A stretch of 22,065 bases of DNA from Promethearchaeota archaeon (GCA_019057865.1 JAHLWP010000052.1:1-22065); one strand, 5' to 3'; shown: positions 302 through 22,065, counted from the stretch's first letter. Numbers and translations: made by a program. The notes: generated by a model from the sequence alone, not told the origin.

Positions 302-682
302 ATGGATGTGTCTAACGTGGCATTTAATAGAAATTTAGATATTCCTCCAAAAGTAGGAAACATAAACATCGGCTTTTATACATTTGTAAAAATAGGATAT
401 TATGTTATCGGGATTGCAGATAAATCTTTAAAATCCCATCTTGATTATCCTAATTGGTATAAAAGTAAATATATCGCTAATAATTACTTTACTGAAGTCG
501 TCTACGCAGACCCAGTAATTGTAGGTCTGTCTTATATATTTAAGTGCCCTATAATAACGAACGATAAATATAGACAATATGAGGGAACAGAGTTGGAAGA
601 ATGGTTGAACAAGGTATTAATTCCCTTTAAAATTATTGACGGCAAGTTTAATTTGGTTGCAAAAAGAGACTCTTACGATTAA
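302..682 (+). CDS. Zc3h12a/Regnase-like NYN/PIN-domain ribonuclease (true start probably about 266)
   Basis: Motifs (NII)MDVSNVA (cf. vIDGSNVA), IADKSL, YAD and IITNDKYRQY carry the acidic PIN catalytic residues. The frame is open upstream to 248 and supplies the first beta-strand; AGGTGA RBS at 253-258. Confidence 0.75.
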   Translation: MDVSNVAFNRNLDIPPKVGNINIGFYTFVKIGYYVIGIADKSLKSHLDYPNWYKSKYIANNYFTEVVYADPVIVGLSYIFKCPIITNDKYRQYEGTELEEWLNKVLIPFKIIDGKFNLVAKRDSYD

Positions 683-3164: not shown

Positions 3165-3542
3165 CATTTGGCAAACATCCATAACATAAGTATAAATTGG
3201 CATAAATGTCCTCATTGCGACTATAAGGCTAAGCAAAAACCGAGCATAACAAGACACTTGGCAAATATCCATAGCATAGGTATAAATTGGCATAAATGTC
3301 CTCATTGTGACTATAAAGCTAAACAAGAATCGAACTTAACACAACATTTAGCTAATATCCATAACATAGTTATAAATTGGCATAAATGTCCTCATTGTGA
3401 CTATAAAGCTAAACAAAAATCGAACTTAACACAACATTTAGCTAATATCCATACCATAGGTATAAATTGGCATAAATGTCCTCATTGTGACTATAAGGCT
3501 AAGCGAAAATCTCATTTAACTATCCATTTAACTCGGAGTCAT
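3165..3542 (+). repeat. 90-bp coding tandem repeat (about 4.2 copies) encoding the zinc fingers
   Basis: tataaattggcataaatgtcctcattg recurs at 3191, 3281, 3371 and 3461. Confidence 0.95.
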
Positions 3543-3572
3543 GATTCAAGTACTAAAATTAAAAATGATTGA
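3168..3572 (+). CDS. Tandem C2H2 zinc-finger protein (four complete fingers plus a partial one at the N-terminus)
   Basis: Four units of C-x2-C-x12-H-x4-H (e.g. CPHCDYKAKQKSNLTQHLANIH) with a 30-aa period. Confidence 0.9.
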   Translation: MANIHNISINWHKCPHCDYKAKQKPSITRHLANIHSIGINWHKCPHCDYKAKQESNLTQHLANIHNIVINWHKCPHCDYKAKQKSNLTQHLANIHTIGINWHKCPHCDYKAKRKSHLTIHLTRSHDSSTKIKND

Positions 3573-3670: not shown

Positions 3671-4420
3671 CTAAGGTAGATTTGGATATTTTAAATATAA
3701 TGGATGTTTTCCTCTGCTTGTCCTAACAAATACAAGCCCAATTAACTTTTTTGGATGAAACTCTTGAATTATCTCAAAAATCCTACCAATTGTGTAGCCT
3801 GTATGTATTAAATCATCAATAATTATTCCAATATCATTATTAATAACTTGACTTATTTTTGGATTATATGAATCTTTTAATTTATATTTAATTTTAACAT
3901 AATTTTCTTTATCCTCAATTCTATTTATTTGGTTGTCAGTTTCTATAATTTCTAACGGATTTACCATTATTAAATTATTATCTAAAATTAGATTTTGAGC
4001 AATTCTCAAAAGAAGCTGATTTGATGTAGGAACCCATGATCCCCATTTTATATTAATTTTTTTTTTAATATTTTTAAATAGGGTGTTTAAAATAAGAAAT
4101 AATTCTTGGTAATATTTTTGTCCCTCTGCTATTCTCATTTTAATAATTCGTTTAGTAAATTTATTCAATGGATTGCCGGTATAATCTGTTTGGTAATATC
4201 CTACAAACTGAATTAAATAGTTTAATTCTAATCTTTCTAATCCTTGATGATGGGCACATTCTTCATCATTTTTTAAAGGATATCCACATATTTTACAACC
4301 CTTTTGAATAGGTCCACTAATTGTATAATAGACTTCCCATTTCTCGTTAATTTTTTTTGATAAGACGTATCCCTGAGAGGGAGTCATTTCAATTTTTAAA
4401 TTTCTAAAAATCATTTGCAT
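3671..4420 (-). CDS. ComF-like type I phosphoribosyltransferase with an N-terminal zinc-binding motif
   Basis: PRPP-binding loop IIIDDLIHTGYTI; CKICGYPL....ECAHH zinc motif; WVPT loop and C-terminal LVFVRT typical of ComF. Confidence 0.8.
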   Translation of the reverse strand: MQMIFRNLKIEMTPSQGYVLSKKINEKWEVYYTISGPIQKGCKICGYPLKNDEECAHHQGLERLELNYLIQFVGYYQTDYTGNPLNKFTKRIIKMRIAEGQKYYQELFLILNTLFKNIKKKINIKWGSWVPTSNQLLLRIAQNLILDNNLIMVNPLEIIETDNQINRIEDKENYVKIKYKLKDSYNPKISQVINNDIGIIIDDLIHTGYTIGRIFEIIQEFHPKKLIGLVFVRTSRGKHPLYLKYPNLP

Positions 4421-4425
4421 AAATT

Positions 4426-5160
4426 TTAATTTATGGAGTTCGATAGAATAATTAAAAGCCTATTAACAGATTCTTTTGAATGGTTTCCGTAGATCAATAG
4501 ATTCCCAGAAGAATCTAATCTTGCGGTCAGATCTTTCATTCGATTACCTTCTGAATCAGCGATATTCCATCTTATTCTAAATGTTATAACTTTAATCTGT
4601 TCTGAATCTTGAATTAATTGGTTAAAATAACCAATATTCTGTACATCATTAGTGCTTAAATTCAATTCTTTAATTAAATCGCCCTCTAAATATACTTTAT
4701 ATAAAATTAGTCTATGTAATTTTATACCATAACCTTCTTCAAGACATTGGCTTTTTAAGTTATTCCAAGTTTTTATTAATTTCTTGGGTTTGAAATCTTT
4801 TGGTAATATGTCAATATTGCTATTAAGATATTTTTCTATTAAATATCGTATTTCTCCTTGACCTCTTGCAATATATAACAAAATATCTTTTTGAATTAAA
4901 TTAATATCCTCTGGCACCCACACCTTAGTTTCTCCTGGCAATTGCATATTGTATTGATATCTAAGAGTATACGCGTTATCTGCTAAATTTTCATTTACAA
5001 GAATGTTGGGAGTTTTTATGTTTTTCTTTAATCTATCAATCTTCTGATTAACAGACTCTAGATCTCCTCGTACAGACTTAACATCATCCAACCACATAGA
5101 AGAAAATAAGCTTTTTAAATCAAATTTTTGTTTAATTCCATAAATTTTGTAAGATGGCAT
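4426..5160 (-). CDS. Hypothetical alpha/beta protein (operon gene 4)
   Basis: About 244 aa. The ATG at 5160 follows a GGAGTG RBS, so the GTG at 5169 used by the track is part of that RBS. C-terminal ITFRI...LTARLDSSGNLLIYG beta-meander. Confidence 0.8.
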   Translation of the reverse strand: MPSYKIYGIKQKFDLKSLFSSMWLDDVKSVRGDLESVNQKIDRLKKNIKTPNILVNENLADNAYTLRYQYNMQLPGETKVWVPEDINLIQKDILLYIARGQGEIRYLIEKYLNSNIDILPKDFKPKKLIKTWNNLKSQCLEEGYGIKLHRLILYKVYLEGDLIKELNLSTNDVQNIGYFNQLIQDSEQIKVITFRIRWNIADSEGNRMKDLTARLDSSGNLLIYGNHSKESVNRLLIILSNSIN

Positions 5161-5175
5161 ATTTTTCACTCCTAC

Positions 5176-6750
5176 TTATTGTATTGTTAATAAATATTCA
5201 TAAAAATCATTATTAATAGAAACGAGACTAACAGGATTATAGTCTAGTCGAACATTTGGTTCCCGTGTCGCATCATAATTATAATTGAATATATTCTGTC
5301 TTAAATAATTAAAGTTTGGATGGTTCATAGCTGTTTGATGGCCAATTATTATTAACTTTTTTTGAGCTCTTGAAAGACCTACTAAAATTCGATGCCTATT
5401 TTGCATGAATCGAGATCTTACATCCGGTTCTGCAAATGTTAATGAATAAAATACAATTTGTGCTTCCTGACCTTGAAATGCATCGACTGTATTAGCATTT
5501 AATCCAGTTGCTCTCCTTAGTCTTCTAGCTTGAGGCTTATAAGGAGTTACTATCTTCACATTATCATTATTAATTTCTAAGGTTGGAAAGGCTCTTTGAA
5601 GTAATATAGACAAACTACTTACAATTTCAACTTCCCTAATGTTTATTCGAGAGCTTCTTACTCTTGTATCCAAACTTATATCACCCAAGTTCGAAGTATC
5701 TATGACTACAACTGTTTTTTGTGGATTGAAAATACTATCTAAAAGATCTGAATATGAATCACTTTCAAAATTTTGATAATCTGGTAATAAATAAGAAGGA
5801 GCAGTAACATTCTCACTATCTCTTATCATCACTATTCTTCTAGCAAATCTAGATGATATATCTCTAATTGCAGGATGCATACGATATTGAATATTTAAAG
5901 TTATTTGTCTATTTTCAGGAATCCTAGAGTTTTCATATTCAGGAAGTCCTCTTAAGTAATCTATACAGCTATGAGTTAAAGGTTCCAATGATGAAATGGG
6001 GGATAATTGACAATCATCACCAATTAATCCAAAGGATCTTATTGAAGGATTTTGTGATATTGGAAGATACATTTCTGCAGGAGTCAATTGACTGGCTTCA
6101 TCAAAAAGAACTGTCTGCGATCTTATAGGATTTGGTAATCTAAGTAAATCATTACATGCATATATAGTCCCTACAAATACTATTCCATTATCTAACTGTT
6201 CTTGATGGACTCTAGGATCTTCATTACTAAATGGTCTGGGTCTGATAATATGGTTCCTAACAGATTCTGAAATATCTTCTTCATTGACGGTTTGAGCAAT
6301 AACTCTACGAAAATATATTTCCCATCCACGAATTCCAATGATGTTTAAAATCTCAAGAATTTTTTCAAAAATTCGATCTGCTCCATAGTTAGATGAAGTA
6401 CATAAAAATACTCTTGGCGAACTTGCTAGATATTGAGGATTACAGACGTATAAAAGTGCACCATATGCAATAACAGTAGTTTTTCCTGTTCCTGGCGGAC
6501 CAATAATAATACAACTTGAGAACTGTTGACGAGTTGGAGGATCAATTACATAAAATCGATCTGAACCTATAAAACTATCTAAAGTTGTGCTTTGAGTTCT
6601 CCTTATTCTTGTAGGAAAAACACTTGCTCTCCAAATTCTCCTAATTGCCTGTTTTTGACTATCATTTAAAGCATTCTCTAAATCACTAGACTCATTCAAC
6701 TTCTCTTGTATATAATCATTGATTCTATTAGTTATAATTTCCCACGACAT
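5176..6750 (-). CDS. Superfamily 1 helicase, UPF1/Dna2/NAM7-like (AAA_11/AAA_12)
   Basis: LNDSQKQA (Q motif), GPPGTGKT (I), TSSNYGAD (Ia), FDEASQ (II), GDDCQLSP (III), QYRMHPAI (IV), TVDAFQGQE (V), VGLSRAQ (VI). AGGTG RBS upstream. Confidence 0.93.
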   Translation of the reverse strand: MSWEIITNRINDYIQEKLNESSDLENALNDSQKQAIRRIWRASVFPTRIRRTQSTTLDSFIGSDRFYVIDPPTRQQFSSCIIIGPPGTGKTTVIAYGALLYVCNPQYLASSPRVFLCTSSNYGADRIFEKILEILNIIGIRGWEIYFRRVIAQTVNEEDISESVRNHIIRPRPFSNEDPRVHQEQLDNGIVFVGTIYACNDLLRLPNPIRSQTVLFDEASQLTPAEMYLPISQNPSIRSFGLIGDDCQLSPISSLEPLTHSCIDYLRGLPEYENSRIPENRQITLNIQYRMHPAIRDISSRFARRIVMIRDSENVTAPSYLLPDYQNFESDSYSDLLDSIFNPQKTVVVIDTSNLGDISLDTRVRSSRINIREVEIVSSLSILLQRAFPTLEINNDNVKIVTPYKPQARRLRRATGLNANTVDAFQGQEAQIVFYSLTFAEPDVRSRFMQNRHRILVGLSRAQKKLIIIGHQTAMNHPNFNYLRQNIFNYNYDATREPNVRLDYNPVSLVSINNDFYEYLLTIQ

Positions 6751-6760
6751 TTCTTACACC

Positions 6761-8506
6761 TTAAATGAATCGTACACGATTTCCAAAAATTCCTTCCCCT
6801 GCCCTTCTATCATTATTAGTTAATCTTTCTTCTAATACTCGTAACTCATATTGTTCAATAGTTTCACTTTCATTTTGGGTTGTCATAAAATTGGAAGCAC
6901 GCCATATTGCTGATTGTTGTCTCCTTAAATTTCTTATATACTCCTCAACAGGGAATTCACCAATAATAATTGGTAAAAGTTCATCTTGAGAAAAATATTC
7001 AAATATATCATTCAGATTTTGTCTTTTATTTGGATTTTCTGAAAAGTCAGTAATAATCGTTCCAATATCCTCATCAATTAATCTAACTTCAAGATCTAGA
7101 AGAAACATAAAAGGACTCCAAAAAGTAATATATAACTTCTGCTCTCTGGGTATATCATCTTCAAAAATATGATTTTGAAAAAATAAAATATTATCTCTTC
7201 TCTCAACCTCTCCAACCCAGATTCCAATATGATTTTTTAATTCTAAAAGATTATTCAAGAATAAAAATAAATAATAAAATCCGCTAGAATTGAGTGTGAT
7301 TTCGTCTCTAATATATTTTTGAAATGATAGTACATTTTCCACTACAACCGCTGGAGGGATTTGCACATAATCTCTCATGCTACATCCAAGGTTCCATCGT
7401 AAGCCACAAAATTGTCCTCGTAATTCAGCTACCAAGCAATCAAAATCAGTATTTAATATTAGGTTGGGTCTTCTTCCATGTAATAATTTCAGCATTAGTA
7501 GTGTTTGTGCGGTTCTAAGAGGTAAATTTACTCCAAATTCGACTAGATAATTTTCTGTATAAGTTTGATCCAAAGTTTCTAATCTTAAATTAAACCTTGT
7601 AAAGTCATGAGGAGAAGGAATTTCTTCTCTTAAAACCGATTGAAAAATATTATTATTGGCAAAGGATAAATTAAACTCCTGTAAAAATTCAGGAGCTAAT
7701 GTTGAAAGAGCAAGTCGCTTTAACCACAAATTATGTAAATTAGGAATAATAAACATTTGATTTTCATAATTTGTGAAATTTTCATGCTCAGGTTCGAGTC
7801 TAATAAAGTCTCGTGAATAGAATAAATAAGAGACAATTTCATTCCTATCAAAATTAATTTCATTAATTTTTGAATAGCCTGGAAAAGGGTCAATCCATCG
7901 AAATCTGTATGGATTTGGATTTCGTTCGGTTCTTCTTAGGGCTATTTCATATGGCATTCCATCATCAGAGGGTGGTAAAGTTATGTGTGGATTAAATAGT
8001 TGAAGATTAAAGAAGATATTACCTATAGAATCTCTGTATCTATTAAGGGTGCCTTCATCTTGTAACCTTTGAAATAACCTTAAAATATAAGGTATAGCAT
8101 CTCCATTCTCATGATCCAAAAACAGATTAAAAAGGTTCCTCCATTGAATAGATTCTAATGGTTGGTTTATTAGACGCCAAGCTTCATTATTCCAAACAAT
8201 ATATTTTAATACATCAATAACAGTTGAATCGAATGCTTTTTTATATCGATAATAATTTCTAAAAACATTTTGATCATCCACATCCTGATCAAACGCTCTA
8301 AAAATTACATGAGGTTGAGGTCTTCTTCCTTTTATATTTTTTAAGAAAAGGAATTTTGGACAGAAGGGTTGACTTAAGTCTTTAAGAGCAATTATTGGAT
8401 CAAAGGGAGGAACCCGAGGATTCCATAGGTTATATCTTAAATCTGATTCATTTGGATAATTAATTGAACGAGTTCGATCTCTATAGTTAATTCTTTCATC
8501 TATCAT
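6761..8506 (-). CDS. Putative Fe-S 'iron-staple' Cas4/Dna2-like nuclease-fold protein, probably catalytically degenerate
   Basis: Exactly four Cys in a 1+3 arrangement: C49 in IALKDLSQPFCPKFLFL (Cas4/AddB-like N-terminal motif) and C357, C367, C375. Lies immediately upstream of the Dna2-type helicase. No clear PD-(D/E)xK residues. Confidence 0.55.
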   Translation of the reverse strand: MIDERINYRDRTRSINYPNESDLRYNLWNPRVPPFDPIIALKDLSQPFCPKFLFLKNIKGRRPQPHVIFRAFDQDVDDQNVFRNYYRYKKAFDSTVIDVLKYIVWNNEAWRLINQPLESIQWRNLFNLFLDHENGDAIPYILRLFQRLQDEGTLNRYRDSIGNIFFNLQLFNPHITLPPSDDGMPYEIALRRTERNPNPYRFRWIDPFPGYSKINEINFDRNEIVSYLFYSRDFIRLEPEHENFTNYENQMFIIPNLHNLWLKRLALSTLAPEFLQEFNLSFANNNIFQSVLREEIPSPHDFTRFNLRLETLDQTYTENYLVEFGVNLPLRTAQTLLMLKLLHGRRPNLILNTDFDCLVAELRGQFCGLRWNLGCSMRDYVQIPPAVVVENVLSFQKYIRDEITLNSSGFYYLFLFLNNLLELKNHIGIWVGEVERRDNILFFQNHIFEDDIPREQKLYITFWSPFMFLLDLEVRLIDEDIGTIITDFSENPNKRQNLNDIFEYFSQDELLPIIIGEFPVEEYIRNLRRQQSAIWRASNFMTTQNESETIEQYELRVLEERLTNNDRRAGEGIFGNRVRFI

Positions 8507-8521
8507 TTTTAATACCTAATT

Positions 8522-9316
8522 TTAATAAATCAACCAAGGTTCGATTTTTATTTCAAATCCTTCAGTTTTATCATAAATATCATTATAAATTTCATTAATG
8601 CTTAATTTGCTTACTGGCTCACTATTGTTATCTATTTCTCGTAGGATATTAGCCAATGATTCGAAAATCCTTAAATTTATTAATGGTAAATTTTCTACTG
8701 TGATGTAAATAATTTCATTTGAAGATTTAAGTAATTTATTTAAATTCCCCCAGAAACAAAACCCAAGAAAAAGAACTTTGATTTCAAGAAGATCGAGTTT
8801 ATAAAAAAAATCATTTAAAGCCATTTCAATTTTTTCTAGATCTCCTCTAAATAAGTTATCTGTAACAATATTATTTTCTAAGTTTGCATTAATGAGATCT
8901 TCGATTTTATTTATTTTTATACAATAGTTCAATTTATTCCATTTCAGAAAAAAAAGATAACCTTCATTTAAATTATCTTTTAACTTTTTTTTATATATAA
9001 TTTCAGAGATTATAGAAAAGAGTTCAAATAAACGATGGATGTATAAATTATCTAAACTTCCATTAGTCAATCTAACTTTATGCTTCGTTTCCTCTTCTGC
9101 TGCTACTATTTCTTCTATAGTTATTATATGTTCAATTACTTGTCGAAATATGGAAGGATTCACTCTTTCTAATACATATAATAATTCTTTTAATCTTATC
9201 TTAAGTTGTTTTACAGGACCGTTTAATATTTGTTCCTCCAATGAATAATTTTGAAAATTTTGAGGAAGTAAATTATTGATATGTTGACTAATGTCTATAA
9301 CTGTTGCTTTTTTCAA
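8522..9316 (-). CDS. Hypothetical helical protein (operon gene 1)
   Basis: 264-aa ORF with a TTG start; ends 15 nt before the next gene; no motif recognised. Confidence 0.75.
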   Translation of the reverse strand: MKKATVIDISQHINNLLPQNFQNYSLEEQILNGPVKQLKIRLKELLYVLERVNPSIFRQVIEHIITIEEIVAAEEETKHKVRLTNGSLDNLYIHRLFELFSIISEIIYKKKLKDNLNEGYLFFLKWNKLNYCIKINKIEDLINANLENNIVTDNLFRGDLEKIEMALNDFFYKLDLLEIKVLFLGFCFWGNLNKLLKSSNEIIYITVENLPLINLRIFESLANILREIDNNSEPVSKLSINEIYNDIYDKTEGFEIKIEPWLIY

Positions 9317-9628
9317 CCTTTTAATTTTTTGGTCAATGATTTTAAATTGATGACTAATTTAAGATCCACCCTTAATTATTATCTATTATACATGATTATT
9401 TAGCCCTACCAGAAATATAAAATTGTTCCTATATTTGAATTAAAATATTTGAATTTATTTGTCTATCTAACTTAAAGATTTTTCCTATTAATATATATCC
9501 TATATTTAAAGAAGAAAATAGCGGTTTTTTTTAATAATAAAAGCGTCAATCATTCATTTTAACACTATTTCTTTAAAAGATGGTATAGGATTTACAGAAT
9601 ATACGACTATTAAACAATTTAAATTGTA

Positions 9629-12600
9629 TTATTTATTTAAAAAGTGATTATCAATAGTTTTAATAAACTCATAAAACTCATAAAATCCTCTATCTGTCAA
9701 TAATTCTTCAATATTAGTTACTTCTCTATTGAAATCTTGTATGCCATATTTTTCATTGACAAGCTTAACTATCTCTATAATATCATTTACATTCTTTTGG
9801 AAAAGCCAAGAACTGACACGTCCTTTTAATAACTTCTCAATTACATTAAGGACACTTTTAGGATTAAGCTCTATGTATTTTTTTAAAATATCAAATATAA
9901 AATTTGTAGAATTCCCTAAATTTCCTTTTGTTAATTCTAACACCTGATTTAATAAATCTATATATTTTTGCTGGACTTCCATTTTCTGAAATAAATTTCC
10001 ATACCAATGAATTTCTTCATAAATTTCATCAACTGTAAGATTTTGCTTTTGCTTTAAATATTCTATTACATATTCCCAAAGATATAAGATCCGTTTAAGT
10101 ACTTGTTCTTTCTCACTAATATCTTTATTTTCAATGTAAATTTTATTAGTAAACCACATCATTTTTGAACGCATTTTTGATGAAGCATTATTTAGAAATG
10201 AATAGATTAATGAGTTTTCACTTAAATCTTCGAGTTCAAAAACATATGCAAGAACCATATGAGATGATAGTCCCTCAAGTGATTTGTACGAGAAAACTAT
10301 ATTTTCGACAAGCATTTCAATAGCTCTTATATATTCATTCCGTAAATGAGAGTATATTTTTGAATTCAATTGATTATAAGAAATATAGCTTTCCCATGCA
10401 ATTAGCCATAAATCTTGGTTTTCTTTTAGAAAAATAATTGGTATTTTAGAAACAGCCCACTGCTCGTCTAAATAGAAAATATTATATAAATTATATGAGA
10501 TAATTGACCAAATTATTCTAGCAGAATTATGTTTAGGATCAAGTATTTCATCTAATTTTTCCCTTACTTCAGGAACCATTCGATGTTGTGGGGGTAAGTT
10601 TGAAACACTCGCATGGTGAAGTGCATATGCAATTATGAGTAATAATACAGAACCCGTATAAGTATTAATCGAAAAATGCATATAATCCCTGTAATGGGAA
10701 TCTTGTGCCTTTGATCTAGGTTCATCTATAGATAAAAATAATAAAATGACCCCCCAAATATCATTTAATAAAGTTTCTTTTAGCTTAATAGTTCTTAATG
10801 CCAAACATTCTCGAAAATAAGAAATAAGGACACGCCAAAGACTGAAATTATTCAATAATTTCTCATCACCCATATATCGTCTTGAGATCTGAATCATAAT
10901 CTGGGTACATTCCTCGATATTAAATTCATCTGACTTTTTTATTGCACGAGTAAAACCCTCTATAATATGCTTAATATAATAAAAAGTAATTTCCGAGTAT
11001 TTTAACAGTAAACCAATATACTTGGAAGGATTCTCAAAAATCATATCCCTCAGTAAATATCCTAAACTTGCATTTTCTGGATGCTCAACGATATAATCAA
11101 TTAGTTCTTCAACTTCTAAATTTTTGATTTCTTCTGTATTTAATTCTTTTTTAAGTCGAAGTTTTACTTTCTCGACTTCTGGAGTGATCTTATCGTATAT
11201 CTCTTTTATTTCTGGAGGTAAGACATTTACTATTGGCTTTGCTTTTTTTTTCACCCAATTTATTCTAAATCTTTCTTTATATTTTTCAAATTCATCTTGA
11301 TTTTCAAAAAGATCAAGTGTAATTCCAAGTTTTGAATAATTAGGACCTCTTTTTATCCAATCTAAAATTTTTTCTTGAGCTTTGAGAGAAATTCGAGTGA
11401 AATTTTGGTTTAACAATTCAGAATATTCATTCCAATAATTGTCATTCTCAAATATTTCAAAGTTAATCAGATATGATTCAACTTCATTTGTGAATATATC
11501 AGAATAAGTCTTTAATAAATACAGTTGGATTCTAATGAAAATAACCCATTTATACCTTGAAATAATTAAAAACTTTGATTTGAGAGTATCTATATCTTTT
11601 GCTGCTATTTGCTTTAAATATCCTATTATTTCATTCACTAATTGGTTTCTAATATCTTCACTAGACTTAACTTCGATAGAAGGTTTCCATATCTCAGAAT
11701 AGTCCTTATAATTATCATTAATACTAAATTCATTTTCAAAATATTTTGACAAACTATCGATTAAAATTTCTAAGTAATTACTCGAGTTCGTTGTTAAATC
11801 GATGGTTATTAGTTTTTCTCTAATATCATTATATTCTGAAAATATAAAATAAAATTTATCAAGGAGGGTATCATATTCATTTCTAATTTCTGGTTCATTT
11901 ACAGAAAAAATTATAGATAAAAACTCAAAAGCTTTATCATTTTCCCCTTCATCTAAAATTTTTTTTATCAATTCCATAATTTTTGCTAATATTGGTATAG
12001 AAATGAAATATGACATCCATTTCTTTATGATTGGAATACTCTTCTGAGATACTTCCACAGGCATATTATAAAGACACTCCATTAGTGGCCAGTATATCTT
12101 ATAATTTTTAGAATCTGATAATGATTGAATAATGGAAAAGACATCTTTTGGTCTTACACTAGAGATTTTTATTAAATAATTCACTTGAGGCCATATTGAA
12201 ACCATCAGAGAGCCCTCGACTGCCTCAGTTCTGGGTTCTGTAAAAAAAGAATTTTTAAGAAGTATATTAAACCAATTTGGAGATGAAAGTCTGGTAAAAA
12301 AATATTGAGAATGAGATGGTTTACTTAATAATTGAAATAAAAGTTCAATATCCTTATGATTAGGTGTTTCCTTTTCAAGTAACTTATCTAGTTCTCTCAA
12401 GATTTCAATATTTGATTTTAAAATCTCTGAAATAATTATTTGAAATTCTCGAAATTTTTCTTCAAATTCTTCTTTATTAGTTCTTTTTAAGCCGCTTGAA
12501 ATGTTAGAAAAGAAACTACATAAATTTGATAATTCATCGAAAAGTCTGTTCTTAAGTTCCTCTGATTTTTTGGGCAAAATCTCTACATTTTTGAAAAAGT

Positions 12601-13806: not shown

Positions 13807-16800
13807 TTATTTTCCTACAACTTCAGATATGAGATTTTGAAGTAGGTTTAAGTCTTTTTTTAGTTTATCCTTATTATTATTAATTTTTTTTGCTAAGGCA
13901 ACTACTTTTTGATGTGTTGGATTTGAATGATTATACCTAGGAATTTTCATTTCTGAGATTAATTTTGTTGTAGTAGATGTCTGCAACTTTTTAGTTTGAA
14001 TGAAATCTCTAACCTCTGAATAATTCATTATACTCGCAACGAAATATGCTTTATTTTCATCATTAAAAGGAATATACATGTTTTTATTATTTGTCATTGG
14101 TAATTTCTCCCCAAGATATTGATCATTAATCTTTTGTACGACTACACAACCAAATTCTCCCATTTCAGACCAAAAAATTCGATAAGGATAAAAAAGCCTT
14201 TTTTCTACATTATAAATAGCATAAAATGGTCCTTTAGATCGAAAATATTTTTTATAACCTGAACGTGTTATTAAAACTTCTTTAAACTTTAATAAATAGT
14301 TATACGTTTTAGGATACTCAACTTTCATTCTAGATAATGGTATTGCCTTTCTTGTAGCAGGATCATTTGTAATTATAATATATATGTTATCTGTATGATT
14401 TAATTCCCATATACCAACGTCTCTACCTCTTATTAGAGGGTAAACAAGATCTGGTTCAATCTTAGCCCTAACAAGTTGTACCTTTTTTTTACCTATTGTA
14501 TTTAAGTTTTCAATTAAAATCTTGCCATCAGGATAAGTCTGTAAGATTTTTACATAATAAACACCATTCATCCATGTGGTCACACCTGCTTTCCCTAAAT
14601 ATGGAGAAGAACCAGAGTATTTTTTCACTAACTCAGGAAATTTTTTATTTGCTGCAGAAAATATTGCCCATGGTGAGCCAGTTTTTTTGGATGATGGCAT
14701 TGCTAAAAATTTTTCAAGCTTTACTTTACTTTTTACATCTTTATATAACAATGAATTATCAGTAAGGTTCACCTTTTCTTTTTTACTCCAAATATTATAA
14801 TTTATAGGATATTCTGTTTTTTCACCTTTTTTACAATAAATAATTGCTGCTTTATTAGTAGCATGAAATGCTTTTAATTTATTAATATCATCAACTTTCC
14901 AAACATTGAAAAACTCTTTAGCAGAAATTCTAAATTTTCTAAAACCCTCACCTGTTTTAACAGACTGGAAAACTGTTTGTGTAATTAAAAAAATAAGTTC
15001 TCCTCCTTCTTTAAGATAAAAATCTATACATCGGTGTACAAATAACATTGCTATATCTTTTTTACCTCCACCAAGCTGAGCTTCAGTCCCACTTTTTAAT
15101 GAAAATAAATAATATTTCTTCCATAAATTTTGCGTATTTTTTCTATAACCTTTAGGGAGATTTTCCCAAGCAATCCAAGGAGGATTTCCTATTATATAAT
15201 CAAATTTGCCAATTGTAAAAGGTGCAAAAATATTTACCAATAAACGTGTCCAAATTCGATTTTTTCCCTCTTTTTCTAACTCTAAAAATTTTTGATATAA
15301 ATTTCTTAAATATTGTAATTGATCTTCAGGAAAATATTTCTTTAATCGATCTCTAAATTCGTTAAAATTACATTCAAGTTTAATACATTCTTCAAGAATT
15401 TGAAAAAATATTAATCTATGATTACTCTCAATAAAGACATTAGGAATATCAAAATTCCCAACTGTAGTAGACATAATATATGTGTCCCCTACAAGCGTCC
15501 TCTGTTTGGTCGAGGCAATAGAGTCAGATAAATAAATTGGGATAAAAATGGAACCTTTTGAAAAAGATATTAACTCCTTAATCGCCAATAGATAATTTGT
15601 TCTAGCTGTTATAGTGGCAATTGGATTCAGATCAATACCTTTAAAAGATTTCGTTATTCTGTCTAATAATTCTGATTCTTCAATAGTTGAGCTGAATTTA
15701 TTAATATATTTATGTATTGATTGAATAAGAAAGGTTCCAGAACCACATGTAGGATCCAATATTCGTGTATCTTTGTTAATATTTATATTATTTATAATAT
15801 ATTCAGCAATCCAATTTGGAGTATAAAACTCTCCTAAATCATGTCTTATCTCACGAGGAATCAAATCCTCATATAATTCTTTTAGAACATCTTCTATATT
15901 TCCTTCATAAACAGAACTGCTAGCAGGTTCATATTTATTTAATCGCTCTAATGCATTTATAATAGATTCTTCTAATGTTAATGTCCATTCTTCAGTAAAC
16001 CACCAAAAAAAATCACCTTCTAAAAAGTTATTTATTCCTAGATTTTCAAAGATACCTCCTTCAATCATATTATCAAAATTTCGCTTTAATTCATCTTTAC
16101 TACAATTTAATAAATATTCTAAGTACCCTTCAAATGCCGCTACAGTTCGAAGTGAAACTATTTCAGATGCTAAAAGAGTTAAAATTAGTGAAAAATATGT
16201 TTGAAGGCAAAATATGCATTCAGCCGTTTCATTTTTTGTTAAACCGAATTTCTTTGCAAAATTAATTAATTTTATTTTTGGATTTTTAAAATCATAACCA
16301 CAGGATTCATTATAAAATTTTTTCCACTCATTAAAAAGTATTTCAGTATGTATAACTTTTCTATTTTTTAAACACTTTATTAATTCTTTCATCATTTTTT
16401 TACAAATATCTGATGTAATCCCTAAAAATCTAGTTAATGATTTAGATGTTAATGGTTCTCGATAGAGTCCCCTAAAAAATTCAAGTAATTGGGGCATTGA
16501 TCTTAAGTTAATTTCATACATCCGAGATATTATCCAATTATCTCTCCATCTAATATAAATAATATTTTTACCATCTAAAGCTATTCCAAATAAAGATTCT
16601 TTCTTTACTTTAATTTCTTTAGCAAGCTTATTTATATAATCTTTTACTTGACTTATTGCATGATTACGTACTGATATTCCATCCATTGCTTTTGGTGATT
16701 CATATTCAACTATAAGAAATCCATATAGTGCATCAATTCTTCCTCTAAAAACACTTTTTTCATATTTAGGTTCAATTGTTATACCATATTTTTCAAAGAA

Positions 16801-19108: not shown

Positions 19109-21265
19109 TTGGTGATAATAGTAAAACCCGAATTTTATCATGCTGTTATAAAAATAACTCAAGTTCCCAATGTGAATAATAAAAGTGAAGATAACATATC
19201 GTGGTTATGTGACCCTTTTATCGACGGTTATGTATATGGTACCAAATTTACAATAGACAATGAATATTTTTCATGGAAATTCTTTATAAAAGAAAACTCC
19301 AAAGGAGAAGCTCTCAAGAGTGGGTATAAATTTTTGGATTATTTAAAAGAAATATATCCAGGATTATCAGGAAATGTGAAAGTAAAACCAATATACTCCA
19401 AAAAATTAAATGAAAAGAAAATCTTTTTCGAGGTTGTACTCCCAACACCCCCATTCAATAAAAAGGTAAGTCTTTTTAAAAAAATCCTTAATCTTTTTAC
19501 CTTTAATAACAGACACTCAATTAAAATATATGTTTTATGGCAAAAAGATGACTCTATCTTAGGAGGGGGTATTGAAGAGACAGAATTAGAAAAGGAATAT
19601 AAGCTTGATGAAAATTATAAAATAAAAATTTTTGTTTCTATAATGCCAAATTTCGATGAAAATTTAGATAATGAAGAACAAATGCAAAAACTGAAAGGAC
19701 ACATAGAATATTTAACAACAGATATCCGCAATACCAATGGTGTGAAAGCTTTCATTAAACAGGCATCAAATGAGACATGGGAAAACATATTAAATGGAAG
19801 ACCTTTCTGGAAGAACATTTTAGGTAAGGTAACAGGAAGGTATTATAGAGGTATTCAGGATCAAATTTCAGAAGATAAAATGCCTGGATTTGTGAATCCA
19901 GAAATTGTGGATTTTGAAATTCCTGAACATATACTAATTGATAAAGCAATTCATGTAAGAAATGAAAATATAAGTTTTACTCAAAGACCTAATAAAAATG
20001 ATATATCTCTTGGGTATTATATAAGTCGTGGAGTAATAACGAAAAGAATTGCTACCCTCCCAGTTAATGATCTCGCTCGTCATGCTCATATAGGAGGTAA
20101 AACAGGAGTTGGAAAAACCAGTTTTATAAATTCATTACAGTGTGAGATATCTAAAAAAAATCCTAAATGTGGAGTTTTGATCATGGGTCTGAGGAAAAGT
20201 AAAGAAGATATTCCCTATAATTTGGATATAACATTAAGATATGGAGATCCAGATTTTAGAGTTCCCTATTTTTTTAAAGGAGAAAATCTCGAGGTTACAT
20301 TTGAACAAACAGCAGCCTTAATAGTATCCTCAATGGGATTAAAACAACCAGTTGACCATGCCATGTACAATGTAATGCTTGAATATTTTAAAGAAAATAA
20401 AGATGTTCCACCGTCATTGAAGTCTTTGTTTGGAAAACTTCTTAATTGGTTTAAAGCCCATCCCTATCATAAAAAATACCAGACCAATATCATAAATGCA
20501 ATTAATAATCGTATCCTTAGATGGGTAAAATCTCCAATCTTAGATAAGATAACAAGATTACCTTCTATCAAACCGTATTGGTTTATTGAATGGATGAATG
20601 GTAAAAACGTTTTCATTGATATATCTGAATCTATTTGTAATAAATTTATGAAAAAACTATTAATCAATTTAATATTTCAGATGATACGAATTTTTTTTCC
20701 AGAAATTAAAACTAATGTATTAAGGAACTTAGTTATTTTAGATGAAGTGGGAGTTATCTTAAAAAGACCCTCTACTAATATAGCTCGTGATGATGATTTT
20801 GTATCACAATATTTTCTAGAAGAAGTATTTTGTAATTTCTTAGAATCGTTTAGAAGTAGAGGAATTGGTCTTATAACTACTGCTCAACTACCCTCTCAAC
20901 TATTCGAATCGATATATACCCTTCCAAATATTCATATTTTATTTACATTAGGACATAGTTGTACTAAATTATTTACGAATGACAGAGAAGAACAAGATTC
21001 CCTAATGCTTTTAGGAAAAAGAAAGGCGATAGTAAAAGATGGGATTAATAGCCGAAATTTTGCAATTTATACCATAGATTTTGATTATGAGAAAGTACCA
21101 TCCCAGTCTATAAAGAATCCCGAGAAGTTATGCCCTTTATGTTATAATTACATAGAGTCTTATGAAAATTTTTGTAGTGCCTGTGGGATTCCCTTAAATT
21201 CAGATTCTAAGTTAAGCATTGATAATCTAGATGAAGATTCTACTAAACTTAAAGAGAAAAATTGA
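19109..21265 (+). CDS. HerA/FtsK/VirB4-superfamily (DUF87) ATPase with a C-terminal double-CxxC zinc ribbon
   Basis: RHAHIGGKTGVGKT (Walker A), LVILDE (Walker B), FRSRGIGLITTAQLPS (arginine finger and conserved Gln), CPLC...CSACG. Confidence 0.9.
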   Translation: MVIIVKPEFYHAVIKITQVPNVNNKSEDNISWLCDPFIDGYVYGTKFTIDNEYFSWKFFIKENSKGEALKSGYKFLDYLKEIYPGLSGNVKVKPIYSKKLNEKKIFFEVVLPTPPFNKKVSLFKKILNLFTFNNRHSIKIYVLWQKDDSILGGGIEETELEKEYKLDENYKIKIFVSIMPNFDENLDNEEQMQKLKGHIEYLTTDIRNTNGVKAFIKQASNETWENILNGRPFWKNILGKVTGRYYRGIQDQISEDKMPGFVNPEIVDFEIPEHILIDKAIHVRNENISFTQRPNKNDISLGYYISRGVITKRIATLPVNDLARHAHIGGKTGVGKTSFINSLQCEISKKNPKCGVLIMGLRKSKEDIPYNLDITLRYGDPDFRVPYFFKGENLEVTFEQTAALIVSSMGLKQPVDHAMYNVMLEYFKENKDVPPSLKSLFGKLLNWFKAHPYHKKYQTNIINAINNRILRWVKSPILDKITRLPSIKPYWFIEWMNGKNVFIDISESICNKFMKKLLINLIFQMIRIFFPEIKTNVLRNLVILDEVGVILKRPSTNIARDDDFVSQYFLEEVFCNFLESFRSRGIGLITTAQLPSQLFESIYTLPNIHILFTLGHSCTKLFTNDREEQDSLMLLGKRKAIVKDGINSRNFAIYTIDFDYEKVPSQSIKNPEKLCPLCYNYIESYENFCSACGIPLNSDSKLSIDNLDEDSTKLKEKN

Positions 21266-21308
21266 TTAATGAGCGATTTTATCAATATAATTTTAGAGGA
21301 GATTATCT

Positions 21309-22065
21309 ATTAGTGAATCTGGTGAGGAATACAATGAAGGAGAAACGGAAAATGAATCAGATGGTGATGGTGAGGAGGAATTTGATCCAGATGAAGATCA
21401 TGATTGGAGTGATAATTTTGATCCAGATGAAGATCATGATTGGAGTGATAATTTTGATCCCAATGAAGAATATGACTGGGGTGAAGAAAATGATAATGAT
21501 CAAGACACAACATCTGATAGTAATGATGATGGGGAAACCACATCTGATAATAATGAGGATAAGAATGATGAGGAGGATATAAACGATACTTATCACCCAA
21601 ATCAAGGGAGGAGCGGAACTGTAACAGTTATGCTACCTCCTGAAACTGAATCAGTAGAAGAAAATACTAATGAATCTGTTGATAGTCCTGAAGAAGAATC
21701 CGAACAAGAAGAAATCCCAGATGCAGAGAATGATTGGGAGCTTGCTGGCGACGAAATACCAGGGATCCCGATTCCAGATGACTGGGTTGAAGAAGTAAAT
21801 GAACCTGATCAAGAACCTGATCAATGGCCTGATGGAGATTGGGTGGATCCTGAAGATCTAGCTGGTGAGGAAATATCAGAGATTCCAATTCCTGATGATT
21901 GGGTTGAAGACGTAAGTGAACCTGATCAAGAACCTGATCAATGGCCTGATGGAGACTGGGCAGATCCTGAAGATCTAGCTAGTGAGGAAATATCGGAGAT
22001 TCCAATTCCTGATGATTGGGTTGAGGTTGTAGAGGAACCAGATCAAGAACCTGAAAATATTCCTG
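21309..22065 (+). CDS. Highly acidic, Trp/Pro-repeat, low-complexity protein (incomplete at the window end; not in the ORF track)
   Basis: Frame open from 21297 to the end: SESGEEYNEGETENESDGDGEEEFDPDEDHDWSDN...IPIPDDWVEEVNEPDQEPDQWPDGDW. GAGGAG at 21296-21301 precedes ATT 21309; the first in-frame ATG is at 21630. Confidence 0.8.
   Translation, partial: MSESGEEYNEGETENESDGDGEEEFDPDEDHDWSDNFDPDEDHDWSDNFDPNEEYDWGEENDNDQDTTSDSNDDGETTSDNNEDKNDEEDINDTYHPNQGRSGTVTVMLPPETESVEENTNESVDSPEEESEQEEIPDAENDWELAGDEIPGIPIPDDWVEEVNEPDQEPDQWPDGDWVDPEDLAGEEISEIPIPDDWVEDVSEPDQEPDQWPDGDWADPEDLASEEISEIPIPDDWVEVVEEPDQEPENIP
21381..21488 (+). repeat. 36-bp coding tandem repeat (FDPDEDHDWSDN x2 plus one degenerate copy)
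   Basis: tttgatccagatgaagatcatgattggagtgataat is identical at 21381 and 21417; third variant at 21453. Confidence 0.9.
21741..22055 (+). repeat. 117-bp coding tandem repeat (39 aa, about 2.7 copies)
   Basis: Units start at 21741, 21858 and 21975 and read approximately LAG(D/E)EI(PG/SE)IPIPDDWVE...EPDQEPDQWPDGDW(V/A)DPED. Confidence 0.9.

Follow-up and report, generated by a model that had tools for sequence, protein, structure and literature searches.

Lysine depletion in two adjacent genes of a Dna2-like cassette from a Promethearchaeota archaeon very probably reflects selection against the amino acid

How do two neighbouring proteins stay poor in lysine in a genome whose base composition pushes proteins toward this amino acid? 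The question is raised by a stretch of DNA of 22,065 nucleotides from a Promethearchaeota archaeon (GCA_019057865.1 JAHLWP010000052.1:1-22065), which was analysed over its whole length and is hereafter called the window. The window is contig C51 of the host genome, G000, which has 4.26 Mb in 87 contigs and 29.1% GC. It carries a cassette of five genes, g1 to g5, all on the minus strand. Two of them, g2 and g3, encode a protein with a predicted Dna2-type nuclease fold and a helicase, respectively, and, judging from the modelled fold of g2, they look like a Dna2-like machine that is split over two genes. Here, we compared the lysine content of these two proteins with that of the genome and of their homologues, and we weighed the possible causes of its depletion. 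Long-standing selection against lysine residues in g2 and g3 is very likely, and a lysine-directed attack on the two proteins is our tentative explanation for it.

The helicase g3 (positions 5176-6750) has 524 amino acids, with 9 lysine (K) and 47 arginine (R) residues by exact count, and its partner g2 (6761-8506) has 581, with 14 K and 51 R. This corresponds to K/(K+R) ratios of 0.16 for g3 and 0.22 for g2, compared with 0.74, 0.69 and 0.74 for g1, g4 and g5. Lysine makes up 1.7-2.4% of the residues of g3 and g2, while arginine accounts for 8-10% in both. The downstream pair, g4 and g5, has 25 K in 247 and 26 K in 249 amino acids. An earlier note on this DNA had given lysine counts for these four genes, and they were exact on recount. 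As the background set, open reading frames (ORFs) of at least 150 amino acids were called across the whole host genome. Among these 2,999 ORFs, K/(K+R) has a median of 0.71 and a standard deviation (SD) of 0.10; g3 ranks first and g2 third from the low end, about 5 SD under the mean, so that both fall outside the distribution of the genome. At the genome-wide share of lysine, the binomial tails for the two genes are 3e-17 and 3e-16. Other ORFs with low ratios that were checked encode ABC permeases, a zinc-ribbon protein and ribosomal L10e; in most of these, K and R are both scarce. The remaining ORFs of the window have ratios of 0.69-0.85, except for two near the right-hand end, namely the ORF at 21262-21582, with 0.50, and an acidic one at 21630-22064 that contains neither K nor R.

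Base composition does not explain the depletion, as the earlier note had also argued. The GC content at third codon positions (GC3) of g2 and g3 is 0.16-0.19 and equals that of their neighbours. Their synonymous codon choice matches that of the genome, and their arginine codons are host-like, with AGA dominant. The overall GC content is slightly raised in the two genes (0.305-0.32 vs 0.24-0.28). This extra GC is located at codon positions 1 and 2 and is therefore a consequence of the change from lysine to arginine, not its cause. Across six K-poor cassettes, the share of AAA among the codons drops from 8.3% to 1.75% (4.8-fold) and that of AAG from 2.3% to 0.59% (3.8-fold), and AAT and CAA are unchanged. 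The AAG share (0.25 vs 0.21) does not differ significantly. The genome encodes tRNA-Lys(UUU) and tRNA-Lys(CUU), the latter with an intron, in a tRNA set that is incomplete, with only 13-18 tRNAs found in the assembly by ARAGORN. Since AAA and AAG are equally depleted, the target of selection is the amino acid rather than a single codon. A nuclease of the HigB/YafQ type, specific for AAA codons in mRNA, was considered as a candidate cause and is ruled out by the equal depletion of AAG.

The depletion spans the full length of g2 and g3, with the exception of residues 51-100 of g2, where the lysine density is 6.4% in K-poor members and 7.0% in members in which the depletion is relaxed; the lysine positions of this segment are individually about 50% conserved. 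The segment adjoins C49, the first of the Fe-S-type cysteines. Among the helicases of K-poor homologues, the Walker A lysine K90 is retained in 45/45, K465 in 44/45 and K130 in 40/45, and K464, K345 and K399 are retained in part. Early in the helicase, K17 and K33 are not conserved. Positions that hold lysine in K-normal relatives hold arginine in only about 20% of the K-poor cases and otherwise Q, N, P or E, and the total of K and R is somewhat lower in K-poor members. This indicates that lysine is avoided rather than that arginine is required. The longest K-free run of g2 has 111 residues (19% of its length). In g3, residues 131-344 form a K-free run of 214 residues (41% of the length), which is a lysine desert by the absolute definition of at least 150 K-free residues; g2 alone has none, and in neither protein does the K-free part reach the 50% of the relative definition. 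K-free runs of at least 150 residues are found in 32 of the 2,999 ORFs of the genome, and many of the ORFs with the longest runs have little K and little R. The trait of g2 and g3 is thus a depletion of the whole protein rather than a single desert.

The K-poor state is shared by homologous cassettes. For g2 and g3, K/(K+R) is 0.19 and 0.16 in locus L003, 0.21 and 0.20 in L005, 0.21 and 0.18 in L007, and 0.29 and 0.20 in L008, versus 0.81/0.74/0.69, 0.74/0.76/0.72, 0.84/0.78/0.66 and 0.80/0.88/0.81 for g1/g4/g5 of the same loci. A deep sister, L013, is a four-gene variant whose helicase is about 30% identical; there, g2 and g3 have 0.23 and 0.18, and the partners 0.64 and 0.50. Ratios of 0.30 or lower are seen in 45 of the 63 ingroup helicases and occur in every major clade of the tree. 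The most distant full-length members of the g2 family are also K-poor (P0154, 0.15; P0157, 0.19). These K-poor homologues are located in AT-rich contexts, and their synonymous divergence (dS) is saturated (>1). The trait is kept down to about 30% identity, which strongly supports selection against lysine.

Lysine has returned in several lineages. The relaxed cassettes have K/(K+R) values for g2 and g3 of 0.47 and 0.61 (L001), 0.46 and 0.63 (L011), 0.50 and 0.47 (L045), and 0.52 and 0.36 (L046), while L012 is relaxed in the helicase alone (g2 0.28, g3 0.41). Fully K-normal cassettes are L009 in genome G179 (0.69, 0.61), L010 (0.68, 0.70) and L019, the cassette of genome G182 (0.64, 0.65). Parsimony on the helicase tree requires at least 5-6 changes of state, and K-normal sequences stand beside K-poor sisters, as in the pair P0028 (0.61) and P0030 (0.25). 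General decay of the K-normal copies is ruled out. Between G179 and G182 (dS about 0.2), the ratio of nonsynonymous to synonymous divergence (dN/dS) is 0.22 in g2 and 0.19 in g3, which does not differ from K-poor pairs. The relaxed cassettes retain all five genes, their motifs and the phosphoribosyl pyrophosphate (PRPP) loop residues of g5, with unchanged helicase motifs. The ratios of g2 and g3 are correlated (Spearman 0.85, n=14, no phylogenetic correction), neither follows those of g1, g4 or g5, and a coupled relaxation of the two genes is suggestive. One genus holds both states, with G000 K-poor and G179 and G182 K-normal. The determinant is thus not a genus-wide property of the host, and this suggests a factor that is extrinsic or accessory. 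None of the cassette proteins has the fold of a lysine-directed enzyme (g4 is RdgC-like and g5 a PRTase). We infer that the pressure on g2 and g3 is extrinsic and varies between lineages.

Changes in the partner genes were considered as an explanation for the relaxed state. A residue of g1, g4 or g5 that differs in every one of the four relaxed lineages was looked for and not found. The g5 proteins of the fully K-normal clade are without the N-terminal zinc-ribbon part and have 153-178 amino acids after a gap of 230-300 nucleotides (L009 10355-11119, L010 9818-10566, L019 9651-11135). The g4 protein of G182 is truncated N-terminally to 140 amino acids, and g5 is full-length in L046, which belongs to this clade too. 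Loss of the zinc ribbon is ruled out as the cause, because it is seen in L009, L010 and G182 but not in the relaxed L001, L011 and L046.

The cassette can be described gene by gene. Gene order and gene sizes are conserved wherever a locus has sufficient flanking DNA, with g1 of about 270, g4 of about 240 and g5 of about 245 amino acids. The first gene, g1 (8522-9316), encodes 264 amino acids with 23 K and 8 R and is K-normal, as it is across all loci (0.64-0.84). Its position and a C-terminal IEPW motif are conserved in 8 loci, and it has no match in Pfam, NCBIfam or PHROG and no usable one in the ESM Atlas. The second, g2, has a conserved C-terminal tail and gave no sequence-family match in Pfam, NCBIfam or PHROGs and none in a sequence-profile search of the PDB. 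An AlphaFold2 (AF2) model built from 14 homologues has a mean predicted local distance difference test (pLDDT) score of 79 and a predicted template modelling (pTM) score of 0.86. The best Foldseek match of this model is Dna2 (5EAN; E 5e-5, probability 1.0), followed by the Cas4-family protein ACE1 and the nuclease domains of AdnAB, AddAB and RecB. The alignment of the 14 sequences has four invariant cysteines, C49, C357, C367 and C375. Both the Cas4/RecB-type fold and the four cysteines by which Dna2 is judged are hence found in g2, where binding of a cluster is predicted, and the fold of the model supports the label 'Dna2-like' that the earlier note had used. However, the catalytic Asp/Glu/Lys set of PD-(D/E)xK nucleases is not conserved. 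No lysine is invariant in the 14 sequences, and no acidic residue is invariant in their core strands (160-230). From these alignments, the nuclease centre of g2 is probably inactive or non-canonical.

The third gene, g3, encodes a superfamily 1B (SF1B) helicase of the Upf1/IGHMBP2/Dna2 type, which matches Pfam AAA_11, AAA_12 and UvrD_C_2. Its helicase motifs are complete, with invariant Walker A, Walker B, Q and R motifs, and are carried on a gene separate from g2. Fused or longer forms of g2 did not turn up in a search that gives weak evidence on this point, and a complex prediction of g3 with residues 110-581 of g2 scored 0.00, which carries no weight either way. The fourth gene, g4 (4426-5169), is present in all cassettes and encodes a K-normal protein of 247 amino acids with 11 R, predicted to have a DNA-binding fold of the RdgC or CENP-L/N type. 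Its AF2 model (pLDDT 90) matches E. coli RdgC (2OWL, E 5e-6), CENP-L/Iml3 and lambda RexA in Foldseek. Searches with its sequence gave nothing in the PDB profile search, NCBIfam or PHROGs, and only unnamed clusters in the ESM Atlas. The last gene, g5 (3671-4420), also K-normal, encodes 249 amino acids with 9 R and consists of an N-terminal part with a Cys/His zinc-ribbon motif and a phosphoribosyltransferase (PRTase) domain, an architecture like that of ComFC. The PRPP loop (DD..HTG.T) and the zinc-ribbon motif are conserved. A profile search in the PDB finds PRTases of the HGPRT type; Pfam matches to Pribosyltran, PsyrT/ShosT and comF are weak, and the score against TIGR00201 comF is 13 bits, with a cut-off of 234.

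What would make lysine costly in g2 and g3? The cost falls on each lysine independently of its position, is limited to one complex, and can be switched between close relatives, and an extrinsic, accessory covalent attack fits these properties best. Exposed lysines on a g2-g3 complex would then be a liability, with a promiscuous lysine-directed attack inactivating or destroying the complex. The most plausible attack would be ubiquitin-like tagging for degradation, the host having genes for ubiquitin, E1 and E2, and the alternative would be acylation by a host accessory factor or one encoded by a virus. Where the attacking factor was absent, AT mutation pressure would restore lysine. We regard such lysine-directed tagging or modification as a possible cause of the purge, although one that is held tentatively. 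More specifically, the purge could be the footprint of a conflict, in which an adaptor from a virus or mobile element, or an accessory ligase of the host, aims tagging at the Dna2-like machine, the machine having shed its lysines and regaining them wherever the attacker is absent; in this specific form the idea is rather unlikely.

Several points weigh against lysine-directed tagging. Genes for ubiquitin and E2 are present in the K-poor hosts G000 and G241 and in the K-normal hosts G179 and G182, so that the presence of the system neither explains nor separates the two states. Among the soluble, enzyme-type proteins of the genome, g2 and g3 are the only ones that are so K-poor and R-rich, which gives no sign of general promiscuous tagging in the cell. 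A ligase, acetyltransferase or viral factor directed at lysine was not identified. The physical association of g2 with g3 is presumed by analogy with Dna2 only. Finally, the coupling of the two genes involves only 3 phylogenetically independent contrasts (2 concordant, 1 helicase-only), and the sign test is not significant. The earlier note had proposed selection against lysine with two alternative causes, escape from ubiquitin-like tagging or acetylation, and the cleavage of tRNA-Lys. The selection stands, and neither of the two causes was confirmed.

In G000, the genes for ubiquitin, E1 and E2 form an operon on contig C41 (about 62-66 kb; locus L035), and their ORFs are K-normal (0.62-0.91). 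Directly after them lies an ORF of 389 amino acids (C41:65200-66369, L035 7201-8370) with 21 K and 34 R (0.38), which is among the 15 lowest ratios of the genome and has no Pfam match. In G241, the host of L008, a cluster of ubiquitin, ThiF-type E1 and E2 genes is located 3.7 kb from the K-poor cassette (L008 1-1650; contig C43, about 63.9-66.0 kb). This proximity is a single observation, in 1 of about 14 loci, and is possibly due to chance.

The cost of lysine could instead arise in translation, where lysine codons would be avoided so that g2 and g3 stay translatable when tRNA-Lys is made scarce by PrrC, AriB, a virus or starvation. PrrC/RloC and AriB of PARIS are directed at tRNA-Lys and would make lysine codons a liability, and PARIS has been reported in 43 Asgard genomes (PMC13700489). 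A switch of this kind may keep the helicase pair made while its K-rich partners stop, the contrast between K-poor and K-rich genes in one operon could encode differential synthesis, and loss over the whole protein with only essential lysines retained fits equally well. However, neither G000 nor G241, which are 99-100% complete, has AriB (DUF4435), and the K-normal host G182 does. In G000, G241, G179 and G182, no AAA_13 match of the PrrC type exceeds the cut-off, and no cassette gene resembles PARIS or PrrC. An attack on AAA or on a single isoacceptor would leave AAG as an escape, and such an attack is disfavoured because AAG is not used in this way, despite the presence of both tRNA-Lys species. 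Moreover, the three operon partners contain 9-15% K, and 9-14 lysine codons remain in the two genes, including those of the non-conserved K17 and K33 near the start of the helicase. Residues 51-100 of g2 likewise keep a normal lysine density at non-essential positions. With this evidence, the cleavage of tRNA-Lys is weakened as a cause, and an explanation at the level of translation is improbable. A chemical hazard has about the same small probability. Lysine crosslinks to abasic sites, which is established chemistry, and lysine-reactive DNA or sugar species (abasic sites, activated C1', products of the PRTase) would form Schiff-base crosslinks between DNA and protein. This would agree with a purge that is limited to the two proteins predicted to translocate on DNA, and with a PRTase and an RdgC-like DNA binder as fixed partners. 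These partners would be equally near DNA, yet they are K-rich; the hazard should persist in relaxed cassettes, which keep the five genes, the PRPP loop and purifying selection; and the depletion extends over whole proteins and is not limited to a DNA path.

Lysine content might also set the lifetime of the proteins, in an arrangement like that of toxin and antitoxin. Under lysine-dependent tagging, the K-poor pair would be long-lived and its K-rich partners would be short-lived regulators, and a shut-off of synthesis on infection would free the stable pair. The difference in ratio inside a single operon (0.16-0.29 for g2 and g3 vs 0.5-0.88 for the partners, in all K-poor cassettes), the setting in a defence island, the ubiquitin, E1 and E2 genes of the host, and the existence of toxin-antitoxin-like defence systems that contain a PRTase, to which g5 has its weak ShosT/PsyrT similarity, are in favour of this. 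Against it, g1, g4 and g5 have about 9-12% lysine and the genome 9.4 +/- 2.9%, so that the partners are not above average, and the ubiquitin genes are the same in the hosts of the relaxed lineages, whose cassettes are intact and under constraint. Its probability is slight. A preference for arginine that is intrinsic to function (grip on nucleic acid, stability of the fold or packing of the Fe-S domain), and that was relaxed where the role had shifted, would suit two nucleic-acid enzymes with 8-10% arginine and the remodelled g5 and truncated g4 of the K-normal clade. This is nevertheless distinctly unlikely, as the total of K and R is lower than in relaxed relatives, with few lysines replaced by arginine, relaxed members have the same helicase motifs, and L001, L011 and L046 are relaxed with full-length g4 and g5. 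Furthermore, a Dna2/helicase protein of the Prometheus type from a genome of the same family (1,515 amino acids, 173 K, 63 R, 0.73) is K-normal, and the purge is thus specific to the cassette family and not to the class of enzyme. The earlier note had also named the alternative of an unameliorated legacy from a GC-rich, arginine-rich donor, for which the slightly higher GC of g2 and g3 could speak. It fails and is excluded as extremely improbable: GC3 and the synonymous and arginine codon usage are those of the host, close and distant homologues are K-poor in AT-rich contexts at saturated dS, lysine returns within the distance of a sister pair (P0028 and P0030), and the lone copy in a context of higher GC, L011, is K-normal.

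Lysine deserts have been described for components of the eukaryotic ubiquitin-proteasome system and for the A chains of AB toxins that are translocated from the endoplasmic reticulum (ER) (PMC13696103). As in g2 and g3, lysine is removed from specific genes, arginine is retained, and the pattern is read as denying a site to a promiscuous tag. The present case differs in being archaeal and in concerning two adjacent subunits of a DNA-helicase machine in a defence island instead of a ligase, receptor or toxin. Moreover, its depletion is protein-wide, incomplete and repeatedly reverted in relatives. In Actinobacteria and mycobacteriophages, lysine deserts have been discussed as a hypothesis that is confounded by GC content (PMC13696103). 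There, too, a prokaryote has a lysine-dependent proteolytic tag and a conflict between host and virus is a possible driver, but the depletion is proteome-wide at high GC, while here it concerns two proteins at 29% GC, under AT pressure toward lysine. Full-text literature searches returned no report of lysine deserts in Asgard archaea or in defence proteins.

Studies of lysine deserts in prokaryotes have been dogged by this GC confound, of which the cassette is free. Since 29% GC pushes toward lysine, a purge that was kept for a long time is clean evidence that lysine itself is under selection. Natural controls are available in relaxed cassettes from within the genus and in the K-rich operon partners, and they make the cause experimentally approachable; in Asgard hosts with eukaryote-like ubiquitin machinery g2 and g3 are a concrete pair of substrates for probing the role of that machinery. 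If the conflict with an adaptor or ligase were true, it would be the first evidence of ubiquitin-type proteolytic targeting, and of its hijacking in an arms race, in the archaeal relatives of eukaryotes. If the cause were tRNA-Lys or chemistry, it would be a design principle for an undescribed five-gene cassette of DNA processing or defence.

Structural and sequence comparison shows how the cassette relates to known systems. In common with Dna2 (5EAN), g2 has the Dna2/Cas4-type nuclease fold and four cysteines of the Fe-S type, and the SF1B helicase that goes with them is g3. However, the cassette version is split over two genes, lacks the conserved PD-(D/E)xK residues and lies inside a fixed set of five genes. 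Prometheus (DUF4011, Dna2 nuclease, helicase and DUF3320) has been reported in Asgard genomes together with PARIS (PMC13700489). It differs from the cassette, in which g2 has no Pfam match, g3 has helicase domains only, and neither DUF4011 nor DUF3320 is found; DUF4011 has no match anywhere in G000. The PADLOC match to MkoA of Mokosh covers only the helicase core of g3 (profile positions 795-1080 of 1112), and no other cassette gene matches the Mokosh models, so that the architecture of MkoA with MkoB is absent. The zinc ribbon and PRTase of g5 stand beside a helicase as ComFC does with ComFA, and ShosT of Shosta and PsyrTA are PRTase defence proteins, to which the similarity of g5 is below curated cut-offs. 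These systems differ from the cassette, whose partners are a Dna2-fold protein, an RdgC-like protein and g1, with no DprA-like component.

The window is a defence island. In addition to the cassette, it encodes a restriction-modification enzyme of Type IIG, a HerA-like ATPase, an NYN RNase and a protein in which a kinase is fused to a Dsr1-like scaffold. On the downstream side, the cassette is flanked by a C2H2 protein with four fingers (zf-H2C2_5, zf-C2H2; 3168-3572, plus strand) and by the NYN RNase, of the Zc3h12a type (302-682, plus strand). A search of sequencing runs found the stretch in 4 sediment-metagenome DNA runs of one study, with no RNA runs listed. The cassette is rare, patchy and accessory. 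Of 400 species genomes of the phylum, 4 carry it, as do 3 of 53 species of the genus of the window, and the g2 family has 31 clusters among 1.8 billion protein representatives.

Several of the loci have neighbours of their own. At L046, the cassette adjoins Tn7-like genes (L046 1-3447), namely a TniQ with C2H2 fingers, TniB and a Mu-type transposase, which suggests that it is carried by a transposon; on its other side lies a KwaA (Kiwa) gene. A module of a reverse transcriptase, a Rad51/RecA-like ATPase and a metallophosphatase flanks two cassette clades on opposite sides (L009 11757-14695, L012 288-3226) and may mark a shared hot spot for defence islands. The L011 cassette (5392-11119) has 34-42% GC, amid ORFs of 62-68% GC (GC3 0.8) such as those at 583-1113 and 14610-15209, adjoins a DDE transposase and looks like a recent transfer into a host of higher GC. 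Back in the window, just downstream of the HerA-like ATPase (19109-21265), an ORF on the plus strand that is open at the window end (21630-22064) has neither K nor R and contains 58 aspartate and glutamate residues in 145, with a net charge of about -58 and a GC content of 0.76 at first codon positions (GC1).

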